DNA from: a bacterium
GTDB lineage: Bacteria > Patescibacteriota > Minisyncoccia > UBA6257 > JAGOQP01
Assembly (NCBI GenBank): GCA_021780155.1
Contig: JAJXZH010000032.1
Span: 8,889 to 72,888, forward strand
Direction of reading: 5' to 3'
Length of the DNA: 64,000 nt
The translations under genes and the position numbers were made by a program. The notes beneath the pieces were generated by a model, which was not told the DNA's origin, searched no databases, and saw only the letters and a list, made by a program, of their open reading frames with translations. Shown piece by piece: positions 1,532 to 21,743 of the stretch (within the stretch, counting starts at the first letter, position 1; each line of letters opens with the position of its first letter).

Positions 1532-2260
1532 ATGCCTCTTAACTGCCCAAACATCAAAGAACTCAAAGAAAAGACCAAACAATCTCTGGCCTTGTTAGAA
1601 CAACTCAAAGAAGAGTTCTCTCAAACAGGAAGTGATAAAACAAGACAAGAAATCATCCCACTTCAAAAAGAGGTAGATTCCAATCTGGAAAAGATGAAAG
1701 AGTCCCTTTCTCAATCCATATCCGAAACTCTCAAAGAACAAGGAAATGATACTGTCCCTCCAATCCCCATTAATCCCGAAGGATTTGTTATTGGTGGAGG
1801 TATTATTCTTAAAACCCCAGACATAAAACAACTTCCCATTCTTACAGCTCTCAAAGAAGTTTGTGGAGAGCTTTATGCCCCCTCCGCCACATCCATAAAT
1901 CTCCCCAATCTCAAAGAAATTCATAAATATCTTTATGCCCTCTCCGCCACATCCATAAATCTCCCTAACCTTAAGAAAGTTAATGGAGGTCTTAATGCCT
2001 ACTCCGCCACATCCATAGATCTCCCCAATCTTAAAGAAGTTGATGGAGATCTTGATGCCTACTCCGCCACATCCGTAAATCTCCCTAGCCTTAAGAAAGT
2101 TAATGGAGATCTTTATGTCCTCTCCGCCACATCTATAGATCTTCAATCAATAACGTTAATTAAAGATGATGTCTTTATATCTCAAAAAACATCACCCAAA
2201 GTCGTCAAATATATCCAAGACCTCAAAGAGAGGGGAATAATCAAAGGAGAGATAGCGTAA
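1532..2260 (+). CDS. Repeat protein: N-terminal coiled-coil-like region followed by about five 20-aa LRR-like tandem repeats (consensus LYA.SATSINLPNLK.V.G.)
   Basis: ATG at 1532 is in frame with the track ORF that starts at 1517. A 60-nt DNA period is visible across 1877-2140. Confidence 0.55.
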   Translation: MPLNCPNIKELKEKTKQSLALLEQLKEEFSQTGSDKTRQEIIPLQKEVDSNLEKMKESLSQSISETLKEQGNDTVPPIPINPEGFVIGGGIILKTPDIKQLPILTALKEVCGELYAPSATSINLPNLKEIHKYLYALSATSINLPNLKKVNGGLNAYSATSIDLPNLKEVDGDLDAYSATSVNLPSLKKVNGDLYVLSATSIDLQSITLIKDDVFISQKTSPKVVKYIQDLKERGIIKGEIA

Positions 2261-2359: not shown

Positions 2360-4963
2360 TTATTCAAGGTGCACCTGCTCTCTGAACATTTTAACATAGG
2401 CGGCCAGATAGGGATGATTTTCAAGTTCCGGATCGGATTTTATAATTTCATAAGCGCTGTCTCGGGCAGTCTGGACCAGCTGAGGATTTTGAATGGCTTT
2501 CATTGCCAGGTCGGGTAGTCCAGATTGTTCTTGCCCCAAAAACTGACCCGGACCTCTTAATTTCAAATCAATTTCTGCCAGCTCAAATCCATTTTTGGCG
2601 TTTACCAGCGCCTTCATTCTGTAAGCGGTTGTTTTTGAATTAATATCCGAAAACAAAAAACAATATGATTGATGCTCTCCTCGGCCCACGCGCCCTCTAA
2701 ACTGATACAATTGGGAAAGACCGAAATGTTCGGAACCTTCAATAAGCATTACGGTAGCGTTGGGGATGTCTATGCCGACTTCAATTACTGAAGTGGAAAC
2801 CAGAATATCATATTTTTTATCTTTGAAATCCGTCATTATCTTTTGTTTTTCCGCCGACTTCATTCGTCCGTGCAAAGAAGCGATTTTGAAATTCGGAAAT
2901 ATTTTTTTGGATAATTTTTCCGTTTCTTCTTTAACCGATTTTACCTCCAAATTAAATAACTGGCGGCCAGTCAGGGGAGCTTCCGGATCGGGTGGTTCTA
3001 TTCGCGGACAAATAACAAAAGCTTGTCTCCCGGATTTTATTTGTTGAGTGACAAAATCATAGGCCTTCTGGCGATTAGCTGAAGTCACGGCTTTGGTGAT
3101 AATTGGTTTTCTGTTTTTTGGCAGTTCATTTATCAAGGATAAATCCAAATCTCCAAAGGCGGTTAAGGCGAGAGTGCGGGGTATTGGTGTTGCGCTCATA
3201 CTCAACAGGTGTGGTATCACCAACTCGGATTTACTCTGATTAGACTCGGATTTATTCGGATTATCATAATTTTTGTCGTAAATAATCCTTTGTATTTCTA
3301 GTTTTACATTTCCGAAATTCACCAATAGAGCTAATTTATATTCAGAACCTTTAAGATAATTCCATACTTGTCTTTTTTCAATATTTCCAATAAATGGCAA
3401 TGCTTTCAATTCTAATATTATTTTATTTTCTATTATCAGGTCTGGTTTATACGCGCCAACCTTTTTATCGTTATATTTTATCGTGATGGATTTTTCAGTA
3501 TCGAAATTAATTCTCTTGCTCCGTAGTTCTTCGAGTAGTGCTTTGTGATAAATAACTTCTTTATGACCCGATCCAATTTGATTGTAAACATTAAATAGCG
3601 CTCCTCTTATTTTGTATGTAAGATCTTCGTAAATTAAGTTCGGTTTGGCATCATCCGTTTTTATCCGTGTATTAATCTGTGAATATCCGCGTGTGAGCAA
3701 TGCGCGCTGATTGACTCCGAAACGATGCTGTTCATCAATTACCACCAATGCCGGATTTTTGAATTCAACTCCTTTTTGAATTATAGAGTGAGTTCCTATA
3801 ATTATTTTTATTTTTCCGGATTTGATTTGGGAAAGAAGTTCCTTTTTCGAGATTTCCGTTTCCAGCCCATCTCCATGAAAAGATAATGTTTGGGCCGACG
3901 TTAGTAGCGCTATGCCGTCAGAAAATTCTTCAAAATATTTTTTGAACGTTTCATAGTGCTGGCGGGCAAGGACTTCCGTTGGAGCCATCAAAATTGCTTG
4001 TTTATTATTGTTGGCTACAATTAGCGATGCGATTGCGGCAACGATGGTTTTTCCCGAACCAACATCTCCCTGAAGTAGACGGCTTGTCGGGTGCGTTTTT
4101 TTTAAATCTTCAAGAATTTCATAGAGTGATTTTTTTTGAGCCAGCGTCAATTCAAATGGTATATATGAAAAAAGCTTTTTTATGTATTCCGGAGAATAAT
4201 CGCATGAGTAGGCATCTTGTTTTGAAAGATGCTCCCGCTCGGAAGCGTTTACCAGTTGCAGTAAAAATAAATCTTGAAAAGAAAACCTCCTTTCAGCTTC
4301 TTGAGCTTGTTCTATCGTGTCCGGGTAATGAATTTGAGCAAACGAGTCGGCGAGTGAAGGAAAATTAAATTCTTGAACTACATTTTCCGGCAAAAATTCG
4401 GGACTGTCGGCAAAATCAGGCAATATTTTACTGACAACAAAACGAATCATTTTTGATGTGACCCCTTCGGTTTGGGGATAGACCGGAACCAATCGGCCGG
4501 TGTGGCGAGTTTCCTGAAATTCATCATTAATAATTTCAAACATTGGATTTTGGAATGTAAGATGTTTTCCCTGAAGCATCGGTTTTCCGGCAAAATTAGC
4601 AAACTTTCCTTCTTTTAAAGTGTTAATTAGAAATTTTTGATTAAACCAAACGGCTTTAACCTTTCCGGTTTCATCAGAAATGGTTGCCTCCACTATCCAC
4701 ATTTTTTTGTGGAAAGTTTTATAGATGCCGACTTTTTCTATTTTTCCATAAACTGTCGCTATTTGACCTTCGGCAAGGTCGGATATTTTTGATATTTTTG
4801 AAAAATCCAAATATCTGAAAGGAAAGTAATATAAAACATCTTTAACCGTTTTGAGCTTAAGCTTGGAAAGTTTTTCTGAAATTTTTTGTCCGATGCCTGA
4901 AATTGAAGTTAATGGTGATGAAAAAGAAATCATAAAAAACATTTTACTACTTATTGTCTCCAA
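2360..4963 (-). CDS. recG: ATP-dependent DNA helicase RecG carrying an in-frame ~155-aa insertion (GxxExxY / PD-(D/E)xK-like) between motifs II and III
   Basis: Walker A GDVGSGKT, DEQHRFGV, SATPIPRTL and QLYQFRGRVGRG motifs, plus the N-terminal wedge/OB region. The true start may be the internal Met at 4933. Confidence 0.85.
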   Translation of the reverse strand: METISSKMFFMISFSSPLTSISGIGQKISEKLSKLKLKTVKDVLYYFPFRYLDFSKISKISDLAEGQIATVYGKIEKVGIYKTFHKKMWIVEATISDETGKVKAVWFNQKFLINTLKEGKFANFAGKPMLQGKHLTFQNPMFEIINDEFQETRHTGRLVPVYPQTEGVTSKMIRFVVSKILPDFADSPEFLPENVVQEFNFPSLADSFAQIHYPDTIEQAQEAERRFSFQDLFLLQLVNASEREHLSKQDAYSCDYSPEYIKKLFSYIPFELTLAQKKSLYEILEDLKKTHPTSRLLQGDVGSGKTIVAAIASLIVANNNKQAILMAPTEVLARQHYETFKKYFEEFSDGIALLTSAQTLSFHGDGLETEISKKELLSQIKSGKIKIIIGTHSIIQKGVEFKNPALVVIDEQHRFGVNQRALLTRGYSQINTRIKTDDAKPNLIYEDLTYKIRGALFNVYNQIGSGHKEVIYHKALLEELRSKRINFDTEKSITIKYNDKKVGAYKPDLIIENKIILELKALPFIGNIEKRQVWNYLKGSEYKLALLVNFGNVKLEIQRIIYDKNYDNPNKSESNQSKSELVIPHLLSMSATPIPRTLALTAFGDLDLSLINELPKNRKPIITKAVTSANRQKAYDFVTQQIKSGRQAFVICPRIEPPDPEAPLTGRQLFNLEVKSVKEETEKLSKKIFPNFKIASLHGRMKSAEKQKIMTDFKDKKYDILVSTSVIEVGIDIPNATVMLIEGSEHFGLSQLYQFRGRVGRGEHQSYCFLFSDINSKTTAYRMKALVNAKNGFELAEIDLKLRGPGQFLGQEQSGLPDLAMKAIQNPQLVQTARDSAYEIIKSDPELENHPYLAAYVKMFREQVHLE

Positions 4964-14464: not shown

Positions 14465-15034
14465 ATGGAAATCGATGATGGCTTGGAAGTTTTCGAAGGA
14501 AGCGATTGCCAAGGATCCGATTGTTACACTAAGAGGTGTCCGATCGATGGATTTGTCCAATTCAGCGAAGTGGTTGAATTGGAAAACCAGGAAATTTACA
14601 GAGCGGTTCTTTTGGATGAATCCAAAAAAGAGGTAGCAATCGGATTTATTGAAACGACAAAATTGGAAAACCAGGAAATTTACAGAGCAGTTCTTTTGGA
14701 TGAATCCAAAAAAGAGGTAGCGGTCGGATTTTTCCATCGTTCGGAAATTAAGCCATTTGATGCGGTTTATGTAAAAGTTATGAATGAAAACGAGGGTGGG
14801 TATCTGGTTTATTACAATGCCACATCTCAAAGTTATGGGTTTATGCAGGGAGGCGCCGTCTGGATTCCCAAAAATTTGTTGTCGGTAATGACAACTCGAA
14901 CGATCAGGGGTATTGCTGATGGCAGGATGGTAACTCTCAAGTGCAAATGTGGGGAAGAACTGGTGATGGCCGTTGGCCTACCAAGAACTTTGGCCGCGTG
15001 TCCCAAGTGCAAGTGTGTTGACCATGTTGTTTAA
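14465..15034 (+). CDS. Cys-rich hypothetical protein with an internal ~32-aa tandem duplication and a C-terminal zinc-ribbon-like CKC...CPKCKC motif
   Basis: RBS aaggaga sits 6 nt before the ATG at 14465. The 96-bp segments at 14576 and 14672 are about 97% identical. Confidence 0.5.
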   Translation: MEIDDGLEVFEGSDCQGSDCYTKRCPIDGFVQFSEVVELENQEIYRAVLLDESKKEVAIGFIETTKLENQEIYRAVLLDESKKEVAVGFFHRSEIKPFDAVYVKVMNENEGGYLVYYNATSQSYGFMQGGAVWIPKNLLSVMTTRTIRGIADGRMVTLKCKCGEELVMAVGLPRTLAACPKCKCVDHVV

Positions 15035-21081: not shown

Positions 21082-21160
21082 CGGATTTTTGTTGGCGAAA
21101 ACGGGAAGGATTTGAATCTTTGATGTTGTTGTTAGTGTAACGATTTTTTCCCGCACAAAG

Positions 21161-21247
21161 CGGAAGGTGGAGGATTCGAACCTCCGATCCCGTTTCCGGG
21201 ATACCGCATTTCAAGTGCGGCGCATTAGACCACTCTGCCAACCTTCC
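21161..21247 (-). tRNA. tRNA-Ser(UGA)
   Basis: 87 nt. Anticodon loop CTTGAAA, long variable arm CCCGGAAACGGG, T-loop TTCGAAT, discriminator G. Confidence 0.85.
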
Positions 21248-21295
21248 GCTTTAAGCGGGATTGCAATTTATAATTTTGTCTCGCTCAAACAAATC

Positions 21296-21670
21296 GGGAA
21301 AAATACCAAAAATCCAAAACCAATAAATGGTTTTGAATTTTGTGGACCGTAGCGGAATCTCACATCGTCCCGATAAATCGGGACTCTCTAAAACCATTCG
21401 GTTTTAGTATTTCCTCTACGGGGTATTTACAAAATACCCCGACCCCCAAAGATTCTAATCCACAAATATCCAAAAATCCAAAACCAATAAATGGTTTTGA
21501 ATTTTGTGGACCGTAGCGGAATCTCACATCGTCCCGATAAATCGGGACTCTCTAAAACCATTCGGTTTTAGTATTTCCTCTACGGGGTATTTACGAAATA
21601 CCCCGACCCCCAAAGATTCTAATCCGCAAATATCCAAAAATCCAAAACCAATAAATGGTTTTGAATTTTG
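21296..21670. repeat. Tandem 163-165-bp repeat (2 full copies plus a partial) directly downstream of tRNA-Ala(UGC); each copy contains the tRNA 3'-terminal 15-mer plus its trailer
   Basis: The string tgtggaccgtagcgga recurs at 21341, 21504 and 21669; the last instance is the real tRNA. Copies are over 95% identical. Confidence 0.8.
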
Positions 21671-21743
21671 TGGACCGTAGCGGATTCGAACCGCTGACCT
21701 CCTCGTTGCAAACGAGGCGCTCTACCAACTAAGCTAACGGCCC
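21671..21743 (-). tRNA. tRNA-Ala(UGC)
   Basis: Anticodon loop TTTGCAA, G3:U70, discriminator A, T-loop TTCGAAT. CCA is not encoded. Confidence 0.8.

Follow-up and report, generated by a model that had tools for sequence, protein, structure and literature searches.

A small folded module bracketed by copies of tRNA gene ends in a Patescibacteriota genome and its relatives: a candidate mobile element

Introduction

Why would the 3' end of a tRNA gene occur three times in succession, separated each time by the same short, non-coding insert? The question is raised by a stretch of 64,000 nucleotides (nt) from a bacterium of the phylum Patescibacteriota (assembly GCA_021780155.1, contig JAJXZH010000032.1, positions 8,889 to 72,888), referred to at its full length as the window. 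Here, the minus-strand gene for tRNA-Ala(UGC) is followed by a tandem array of near-identical units. A preliminary description, made from the sequence of the window, considered the array as a decayed series of attachment sites (attL/attR), a miniature element that targets tRNA genes, or a tRNA-linked structured RNA family. Our analysis centers on the module inside each unit, which we read as a non-coding, strongly folded and non-autonomous mobile element of about 110 nt that duplicates its target, a reading to which we give about an even chance. Its relatives sit beside tRNA genes, and once beside an elongation-factor gene, bracketed by the end of the neighbouring gene. Four aspects had been missed by the preliminary description: the array is secondary, a sister element lies behind tRNA-Ile, an antisense segment is present in most copies, and the modules are circular permutations of each other.

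Organization of the array behind tRNA-Ala(UGC)

The array and its flanking genes (21160 to 21743, minus strand) consist of the following features, listed in the orientation of the tRNA.
21671..21743, minus strand: tRNA-Ala(UGC), identified by ARAGORN and Rfam, with no encoded CCA
21671-21684, minus strand: S copy 1, the last 14 nt of tRNA-Ala(UGC), TCCGCTACGGTCCA, first copy of the repeated target segment
21634..21670, minus strand: trailer hairpin T copy 1, 37 nt, CAAAATTCAAAACCA-TTTAT-TGGTTTTGGATTTTTGG
21517..21626, minus strand: module copy 1, A-type core, 110 nt, CGGATTAGAATC...GTGAGATTCCG
21583-21605, 21554-21569 and 21531-21548, minus strand: hairpin P1, an extra hairpin and hairpin P3 of module copy 1
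21507..21520, minus strand: S copy 2, TCCGCTACGGTCCA, exact
21470..21506, minus strand: trailer hairpin T copy 2
21353..21462, minus strand: module copy 2
21343..21356, minus strand: S copy 3, TCCGCTACGGTCCA, exact
21306..21342, minus strand: trailer hairpin T copy 3
21160..21247, minus strand: tRNA-Ser(UGA), the next gene downstream of the array

Tandem Repeats Finder places the array at 21301-21684, with a period of 164, 98% matches, no indels and a score of 747, and confirms the near-identical units described previously, in 2.3 rather than 2.4 copies. A separate repeat search detected a 164-nt repeat in two copies (99%) and a 54-nt repeat in three (98-100%). The S segment is built by the last T-loop base, the 3' strands of the T-stem and acceptor, and the discriminator. 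It is present three times together with the trailer, as the preliminary description had stated, with an exact length of 14 nt in all three copies (17 with one mismatch) instead of 15. All three S copies are followed by an identical 37-nt trailer hairpin, A/U-rich and terminator-like, which contains one U.G pair on the minus strand. A short linker separates trailer copy 1 from module copy 1; this module has an open helix, P2, formed by GAATCTT/GAGATTC, and its final 4 nt overlap S copy 2. Module copy 2 differs from it at two positions, a C>T at the first base and a C>T in the P1 loop. The three internal hairpins listed previously are all present. On the 3' side of trailer copy 3, the likeness to the unit fades (ggtatttttcccgattt versus ggatatttgcggatta), and stretches of 34-44 nt of the unit, searched with <=3 mismatches, have no other match in the 64-kb window, where 0 chance matches are expected. 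The G+C content of the sequence is ~36%, and the tRNA genes examined do not encode CCA; together with the candidate phyla radiation genomes among the carriers of a generic repeat (described below), both features point to a Patescibacteria-like organism.

Copy number and empty sites in relatives

Syntenic DNA from related genomes was fetched with the 199-aa protein encoded just upstream of tRNA-Ala. In L004, L005 and L007, three assemblies of this species, the tRNA end and trailer occur twice, with exactly one module in between; module copy 2 is missing from all three, and the gene spacing is 164 nt shorter than in the window. In a fourth assembly of this species (L006), the contig breaks inside the repeat. 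One module is also found in a sister lineage (L001/L099), whose neighbouring protein is 91% identical. The P1 hairpin of this lineage displays a compensatory change from U-A to C-G (GGGGTATTT/AAATACCCC to GGGGCATTT/AAATGCCCC), and the loop of its second trailer is flipped. Empty sites exist in more distant relatives: tRNA-Ser lies 32 nt after tRNA-Ala in L008/L009, and a 39-nt spacer between the same two genes in L131 holds its own unrelated terminator hairpin. From the one-copy state in relatives and the empty sites in more distant ones, we infer that the window lineage and L001 descend from an ancestor in which the module had inserted once. The 2.3-copy array appears to be a recent local amplification, since one unit is found in sister assemblies of this species; the best explanation for its second module copy is slippage or unequal recombination between the 54-nt repeats on either side.

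A sister element behind tRNA-Ile(GAU)

The element behind tRNA-Ala is not a one-off: a second family member is found behind tRNA-Ile(GAU) in the same window.
62892..62963, plus strand: tRNA-Ile(GAU), host of the second element
62951-62963, plus strand: S of tRNA-Ile, CCTTCCACACGCA, 13 nt
62964..63137, plus strand: I-type unit
62964-62994, plus strand: I-type trailer hairpin
62995-63015, plus strand: I-type antisense segment, 21 nt, with GGAAGGGATCGAA, the exact reverse complement of the tRNA-Ile T-arm
63022-63101, plus strand: I-type core, 80 nt
63125-63137, plus strand: second S copy, the last 13 nt of tRNA-Ile
63138..63217, plus strand: partial second I-type unit
63138-63168, 63169-63189 and 63196-63217, plus strand: trailer, antisense segment and first 22 nt of the core in the partial unit
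63248, plus strand: start of tRNA-Val, after the partial I-type unit

The tRNA-Ile element comprises 1.5 units and adopts a circular permutation different from that of the Ala module. In its core, P1 is open, P3 is GTCCCGA-CTTG-TCGGGAC and P2 is AAGAAACC-CTAA-GGTTTCTT; GAGTCCCGA-N4-TCGGGACGAYGTRAGA and GGGGGTCGGGG are shared with the Ala module.

Two further observations concern this locus. A strain of the window species (L127) has tRNA-Ile with an identical trailer and a variant core, in which P3 is cut to GC-AAA-GC. At L127 1180-1900, the tRNA-Ile module is fused to the 3' end of another tRNA (..CCTCTCCCGCGCA, twice) and to a different downstream region, a junction that is either an assembly chimera or the product of a rearrangement by way of the repeated cores. 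In the window, a fragment resembling the T-loop and 3' end of another tRNA (gattcaatccccgcaaggcgta) lies downstream of tRNA-Val(GAC), at 63358-63379 on the plus strand, and is possibly another scar.

Family members in other genomes

A scan for the shared hairpin, with one genome per species, returned 103 loci, two of them from a single genome, WY5.bin78: the Ala locus (L099) and a new locus, L094. In the latter, tRNA-Pro(CGG) is followed by two units, each composed of the Pro terminator, a module and the tRNA-Pro 3' end, and then by a final terminator. The Pro and Ala cores of WY5.bin78 are identical at 109 of 114 positions and their trailers are unrelated. Near-identical non-coding copies at unrelated sites of one genome, as found for MITEs (miniature inverted-repeat transposable elements), can be seen at these two loci. 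Between its core and the Pro repeat, the Pro module has in addition a foreign tRNA-like 3' end (CCGCTTGCCCGCC), arranged as a hairpin; foreign ends of this kind are seen at two places, the Pro locus and L127.

Four more contigs (L118, L120, L121 and L122) were identified by a metagenome scan. L120 has two different modules behind tRNA-Ala(CGC), and L122 has one at tRNA-Leu(UAG), in the orientation opposite to the tRNA. In L118 and L121, the first 20 codons of the elongation factor G (EF-G) gene, fusA, are present as two identical 60-nt copies with the module between them. The module strand is opposite to that of fusA, and the duplication of the 5' end includes a new upstream segment.

A generic palindrome of the form GTCATTGCGAGGA-(variable hairpin)-GACGTGGCAATCTC, which has a partner in inverted orientation (..GAGATTGC..CTCGCAATGAC), accounts for ~60 of the 103 loci (L013-L115; for example, L087 2136-2207 and L020 3402-3447). 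It exists in several copies per genome in Dehalococcoidia, Chloroflexota, Omnitrophota, Planctomycetota, Marinimicrobia, Gammaproteobacteria and the candidate phyla radiation (CPR). Its outer stem co-varies (ATTGC/GCAAT versus ATTCT/AGAAT), and it has no match in Rfam.

A three-way junction in three circular permutations

A three-way junction is common to all members, and every unit forms a closed, multibranched structure. The fold of one unit reaches -64.2 kcal/mol, compared with -40.0 +/- 3.9 for shuffled sequences (z = -6.2), and the whole array reaches z = -12.7 against shuffles. Helix P1 begins CGG/CCG and then varies with full compensation (CGGGGTATTT, CGGGGCATTT, CGGGAAAAC, CGGAGGAAT and CGGGGG(ATTGTGC)). 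The purine-rich junction between P1 and P3 reads (T/C)G(T/A)(A/T)GGAA(A/G)ATAGGA, that is, it has the form ..GTAGGAAAATAGGA, and is interrupted by the extra hairpin in A-type cores. P3 consists of GTCCCGA-N4-TCGGGAC with variable loops, and is joined to P2 by GACGT or GATGT. P2 is AAGAAACC/GGTTTCTT, or GAGATTC/GAATCTT in A-type cores, with two compensatory pairs between the versions, and the P2-P1 junction ends GGG(G/A)GT. Overall, covariation is seen at 5-6 positions of P1 and at 2 of P2. G.U pairs are present on the module strand and A.C pairs are absent, a pattern that mildly favours folding of the module strand.

The members can be divided by the point at which they are attached to the host DNA: through P2 in the A-type (Ala, Pro), through P1 in the I-type (Ile, Leu and the second L120 module), and, for L118 and the first of the two L120 modules, through the P2/P1 junction. 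Because this point differs by sub-family, the three sub-families are circular permutations of each other. A covariance model built on the contiguous part of the core scores members at 74-98 bits and a copy cut by a contig end at 62 bits. The next matches, at <=37 bits, are generic palindromic repeats, and the model finds no further members in ~760 kb of collected sequence. An acceptor-like stem, GGGUCG/CGGUCC with G3:U70, was considered as a possible AlaRS mimic and dropped, as it competes with the P1 hairpin and no equivalent exists in the modules at Pro, Ile or elsewhere.

Target duplication and antisense segment

At tRNA-Ala (three copies), tRNA-Pro and tRNA-Ile, the insert lies between direct repeats that carry the target tRNA's 3' end. 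Target duplications begin at the 3' strand of the T-stem or acceptor, are identical within each locus and span 43-62 nt or, with the partial unit included, 93 nt at tRNA-Ile. In most modules, a reverse-complement copy of the target's end is located directly 5' of the core. The exact antisense run is 13 nt at tRNA-Ile (GGAAGGGATCGAA), 13 nt in L120 (GGATTTGAACCCG), where it covers the T-arm only, 10 nt in the fusA copy (GCATATTGAT), 9 nt at tRNA-Pro, and 13 nt in a second module family behind tRNA-Ser in L001 (GAAGGATTCGAAC). These five runs are each equalled by <=6 of 5000 shuffles. The antisense segment pairs with the target copy 3' of the core, and the unit therefore closes as one branched fold; the target end, trailer hairpin and antisense segment form a long imperfect palindrome. 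A palindrome that pre-existed at the target was rejected, since the empty L131 site has a terminator and no antisense segment. Accordingly, the antisense segment arrives with the module.

The module family behind tRNA-Ser (S-type; L001 5972-6180 and L127 ~1390-1620) is unrelated to the first and alike in architecture. It is built, in this order, by a terminator, the T-arm antisense segment (GAAGGATTCGAAC), a folded core (..GGAGCATG-(hairpin)-GCGAGTYGGTGCCTAG..) and a tRNA-like 3' end, and has no Rfam match. Only an S-type remnant, gattcaaatccttcccg, is found in the window, at 21102-21118 on the minus strand. The S-type stretch GGATTCGAAC recalls the 5' region of tmRNA, and no model supports a tmRNA.

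Searches for known families, phages and recombinases

At gathering scores, only tRNAs match Rfam 15. With E values up to 10, the A-, I- and S-type regions, together with L121 and L122, yield only noise such as plant microRNA models. The hammerhead core CTGATGA (CUGAUGA) is absent from both strands of the unit, and a promoter scan revealed nothing on the module strand. The earlier statement that no integrase lies nearby holds: in the syntenic annotated loci, the precomputed Pfam annotation of the neighbours contains no recombinase gene within ~5 kb. In a PHROG screen of 57 open reading frames (ORFs) of the window, a partial check, the 25 strongest families included no integrase. No match was obtained by blastn in 50,697 phage records, and two scans of viral contigs returned one unrelated match and none, respectively. 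We found no description of the element in the literature, searched by sequence and topic, or in Rfam 15, which is not proof of novelty.

Several specific candidates were also rejected. For a tmRNA or permuted tmRNA, ARAGORN finds none and Rfam gives only a 10.5-bit noise match. A degenerate group I intron does not fit a module that is outside the tRNA and too short; tRNA introns in Patescibacteria have been reported at anticodon-loop position 35/36 (PMC13011429). A diversity-generating retroelement is not consistent with unit differences that are both C/T rather than at adenines, and no reverse transcriptase gene exists among the neighbours. Finally, a retroelement primer-binding site was discarded, as no TGG (the complement of CCA) precedes the antisense segments.

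Other features of the tRNA loci

In more distant relatives (L010 2100-2802; L012 2690-3087; L132 717-1095), tRNA-Ala(UGC) is preceded by one or two small ORFs for GIY-YIG endonucleases. The end of each ORF falls within a copy, partial or full, of the tRNA 5' end (gggccgttag...), and one pseudo-copy has a 36-nt GC-rich hairpin inserted in the D-loop. This arrangement is a different mobile system, on the 5' side of tRNA-Ala(UGC). Directly behind tRNA-Ala in L012, at 3088-3160, are two tandem hairpin units of ~42 nt (tacttcgctccggagagcttcgtagtgc..gcacaaa), and a related hairpin follows the foreign tRNA end in L127.

Downstream of the array, tRNA-Ser(UGA) is flanked by a 13-bp leader-trailer inverted repeat (21149-21168 and 21241-21260) that lengthens the acceptor stem. 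This gene seems to have been replaced in the window lineage, as its sequence differs from tRNA-Ser(UGA) of L001, L008 and L131. Three other tandem repeats in the window (1853-2142, 14577-14731 and 56512-56983, with periods of 60/120, 84 and 63 nt) are probably protein repeats, because all three lie inside long ORFs and have periods that are multiples of 3.

Comparison with known systems

Integrative elements at tRNA genes and cis-mobilizable elements (CIMEs), as generally known, resemble the module in being inserted between direct repeats of the tRNA 3' end, in stacking in tandem and in leaving the tRNA intact. In contrast to these elements, the insert is 110-130 nt, non-coding and always of the identical folded core type; the repeat extends through the trailer/terminator (43-62 nt), an antisense copy of the target is present, and no integrase lies nearby.

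MITEs and repetitive extragenic palindromes (REP/REPIN) are likewise non-autonomous elements that are small and non-coding, rich in hairpins and present in multiple copies. The P3 hairpin and the bases flanking it (GA-GTCCCGA-N4-TCGGGAC-GACGTGAGA.TC) are also found, nearly base for base, in the generic repeat GTCATTGCGAGGA-(hairpin)-GACGTGGCAATCTC of many phyla, which the core model separates from the family by the scores given above. However, fixed terminal inverted repeats shared across the family and a short, fixed duplication are both lacking. The A-type termini display only an imperfect CGGA..AATCT / AGATTCCG pairing, and the inverted pair of the other members is target-derived and different at each locus. 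Duplications vary in length and measure tens of bases instead of 2-10 bp, the core forms a three-way junction and not a plain palindrome, and the copy number per genome is low.

Tandem self-cleaving ribozymes, such as hammerhead satellites and retrozymes, share a three-way junction with conserved nucleotides, a permuted open helix and head-to-tail units of 160-200 nt, whereas the module has no Rfam 15 ribozyme match and no known catalytic core sequence. Folded single-strand sites, namely CTX phage attP with XerCD and integron attC, have an equivalent order (site, spacer, inverted site, cargo, site) and occur in tandem arrays, and the site can pair with its inverted copy to mimic a duplex target. 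Unlike these sites, the family has no dif-like site and no phage or integron genes, and its site changes with the host gene. Known casposon targets include tRNA 3' ends and an elongation-factor gene. Cas1-mediated integration of the casposon or CRISPR type resembles the present case in that a whole target segment, often containing a hairpin, is duplicated on both sides of the insert, but no cas1 or other protein gene is found here, and known casposon duplications are ~14-15 bp. We know of no bacterial transposase or integrase whose footprint combines a target duplication of tens of bases with an antisense copy. For each of the first four systems compared, a defining feature is missing, and the family apparently represents small, previously uncatalogued, non-autonomous elements at tRNA genes.

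Is the module mobile?

Mobility is suggested by several lines of evidence taken together: the module recurs at unrelated targets, has empty sites in relatives, and is present as near-identical cores with unrelated flanks in one genome; the local target is duplicated each time, the structure co-varies, and copy number differs between assemblies. The foreign tRNA-like 3' ends carried along by the Pro module and in L127 fit movement between loci. Recurrence of the core at other tRNA genes, with empty sites in relatives, likewise favours the miniature tRNA-targeting element proposed in the preliminary description.

A number of points weigh against this reading. Known bacterial transposases make target-site duplications that are far shorter and less variable, and the identity of the present duplications within each locus is not expected of an attP brought from elsewhere. 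At tRNA-Ala the antisense run is weak (7 nt, reached by 55 of 5000 shuffles), and the 5' antisense part of the A-type is largely conserved between Ala and Pro and only weakly target-specific. The one-copy state in short-read assemblies could partly be due to collapse of tandem repeats. The P3 stem appears invariant only because every search required it. Known copies are few, ~ten loci from five or six sources, and when JGI metagenomes were scanned once with the A-type pattern, 0 matches resulted. The element is not tied to any transposase, integrase or reverse transcriptase, and we infer its mobility, which would be in trans, from distribution alone.

Among the alternatives, the module could be a tRNA-linked structured RNA gene or ribozyme whose repeats are needed by the RNA. 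It would be transcribed with or after the tRNA, with a 3' end set by the tRNA-like end and terminator, or its core would be self-cleaving. This explanation is compatible with mobility, and we regard it as a serious rival, if on the unlikely side. It is in line with the very stable fold of both unit and array, the conserved single-stranded junctions and co-varying stems, and the G.U pairs without A.C pairs on the module strand. Three circular permutations of one junction are otherwise typical of small ribozymes. Furthermore, a terminator-like hairpin ends each unit in the tRNA orientation, and four of the six loci are oriented as their host tRNA. The orientation is not fixed, however, being opposite to tRNA-Leu in L122 and to fusA in L118, and the module is dispensable, since close relatives lack it and its copy number varies. 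Neither an Rfam family or ribozyme class, even at the relaxed threshold, nor the hammerhead core, nor a promoter on the module strand was found. A tRNA-linked structured family in the broader sense, as first suggested, gains support from the recurrence in the window and in other genomes and from the compensatory stem changes.

We consider it very unlikely that the units are scars of integrase-mediated integration of a phage or island at the tRNA 3' end, deleted to a stub, possibly by serial accretion. Direct repeats of a tRNA 3' end are the textbook footprint of such events, tandem accretion at att sites is known for cis-mobilizable elements, and the tRNA loci of this lineage are recombination hot spots, with a seemingly replaced tRNA-Ser and other tRNA-end fragments nearby. 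Random remnants, though, would not be expected to keep one conserved fold of 80-110 nt at independent loci, and no integrase or phage genes were found in or beside any copy (neighbours screened), nor any match in the phage and viral collections. The decayed attL/attR series first envisaged, if it stemmed from a large element, is disfavoured by inserts that are always ~110-130 nt with the same type of conserved fold, by direct repeats that run through the trailer and are identical within each locus, and by the copy that duplicates the 5' end of the EF-G gene together with a new upstream segment. A classical integrase would also leave the antisense copy of the target unexplained.

Tandem duplication of the DNA beside the tRNA, as a purely local event without wider meaning, is extremely improbable and already contradicted as a full explanation: head-to-tail units at 98% identity, in numbers that vary among relatives and between assemblies of one species, describe the array and the step from one copy to two, not the origin of a unit whose core recurs at tRNA-Pro of a related genome and whose relatives at tRNA-Ile in the window and in four metagenomic contigs keep a co-varying fold with compensatory changes, so that the unit is neither unique to its locus nor without conserved hairpins, the outcome that the preliminary description had named as refuting its proposal.

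Proposed mechanism

If the module is indeed a mobile element, the original event would have set one module between two ~54-nt copies of the tRNA-Ala end (acceptor/T-stem 3' strand plus trailer hairpin), the layout present in the sister assemblies and sister lineage. Unequal homologous recombination or replication slippage between the 54-nt direct repeats would then have doubled the module. The insertion route is constrained by the length and identity of the duplications, the inverted target copy beside the core, and the circular permutation of the sub-families. Two routes seem most plausible. In the first, which we prefer, a small circular or tandem intermediate would undergo Campbell-type recombination within the target-identical segment, which would explain the permutations, arrays and carried-over foreign ends. 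Alternatively, a replicative template switch may occur: the nascent strand would snap back at the trailer hairpin, copy the tRNA end into its complement, switch to the donor core and return at the tRNA end, making the antisense and direct target copies in one step.

A more specific version, which we consider doubtful and decidedly unlikely, is that the module is a guide-carrying mobile nucleic acid. Its antisense segment would select the site by pairing with tRNA 3' ends or the fusA start, the three-way junction would act as a catalytic RNA or as a scaffold for a recombinase supplied in trans, and the intermediate would be a small, permutable circle. The logic would be similar to bridge-RNA or group II intron targeting, within ~110 nt.

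Significance

For the annotation of these genomes, copies of the module create fragments of tRNA ends, interrupt assemblies made from short reads and link loci that are otherwise unrelated, L127 being an example. Rearrangements at tRNA clusters are likely to arise from them as well. The permuted junction is a candidate motif, new for RNA or single-stranded DNA, and amenable to in vitro tests. If the module is the mobile element that we favour, it would represent a new kind of structured element, very small in size, which settles at the ends of essential genes in uncultured bacteria with small, low-GC genomes, probably of the CPR, leaving the host genes intact while each insertion duplicates tens of bases of the target and adds an antisense copy.

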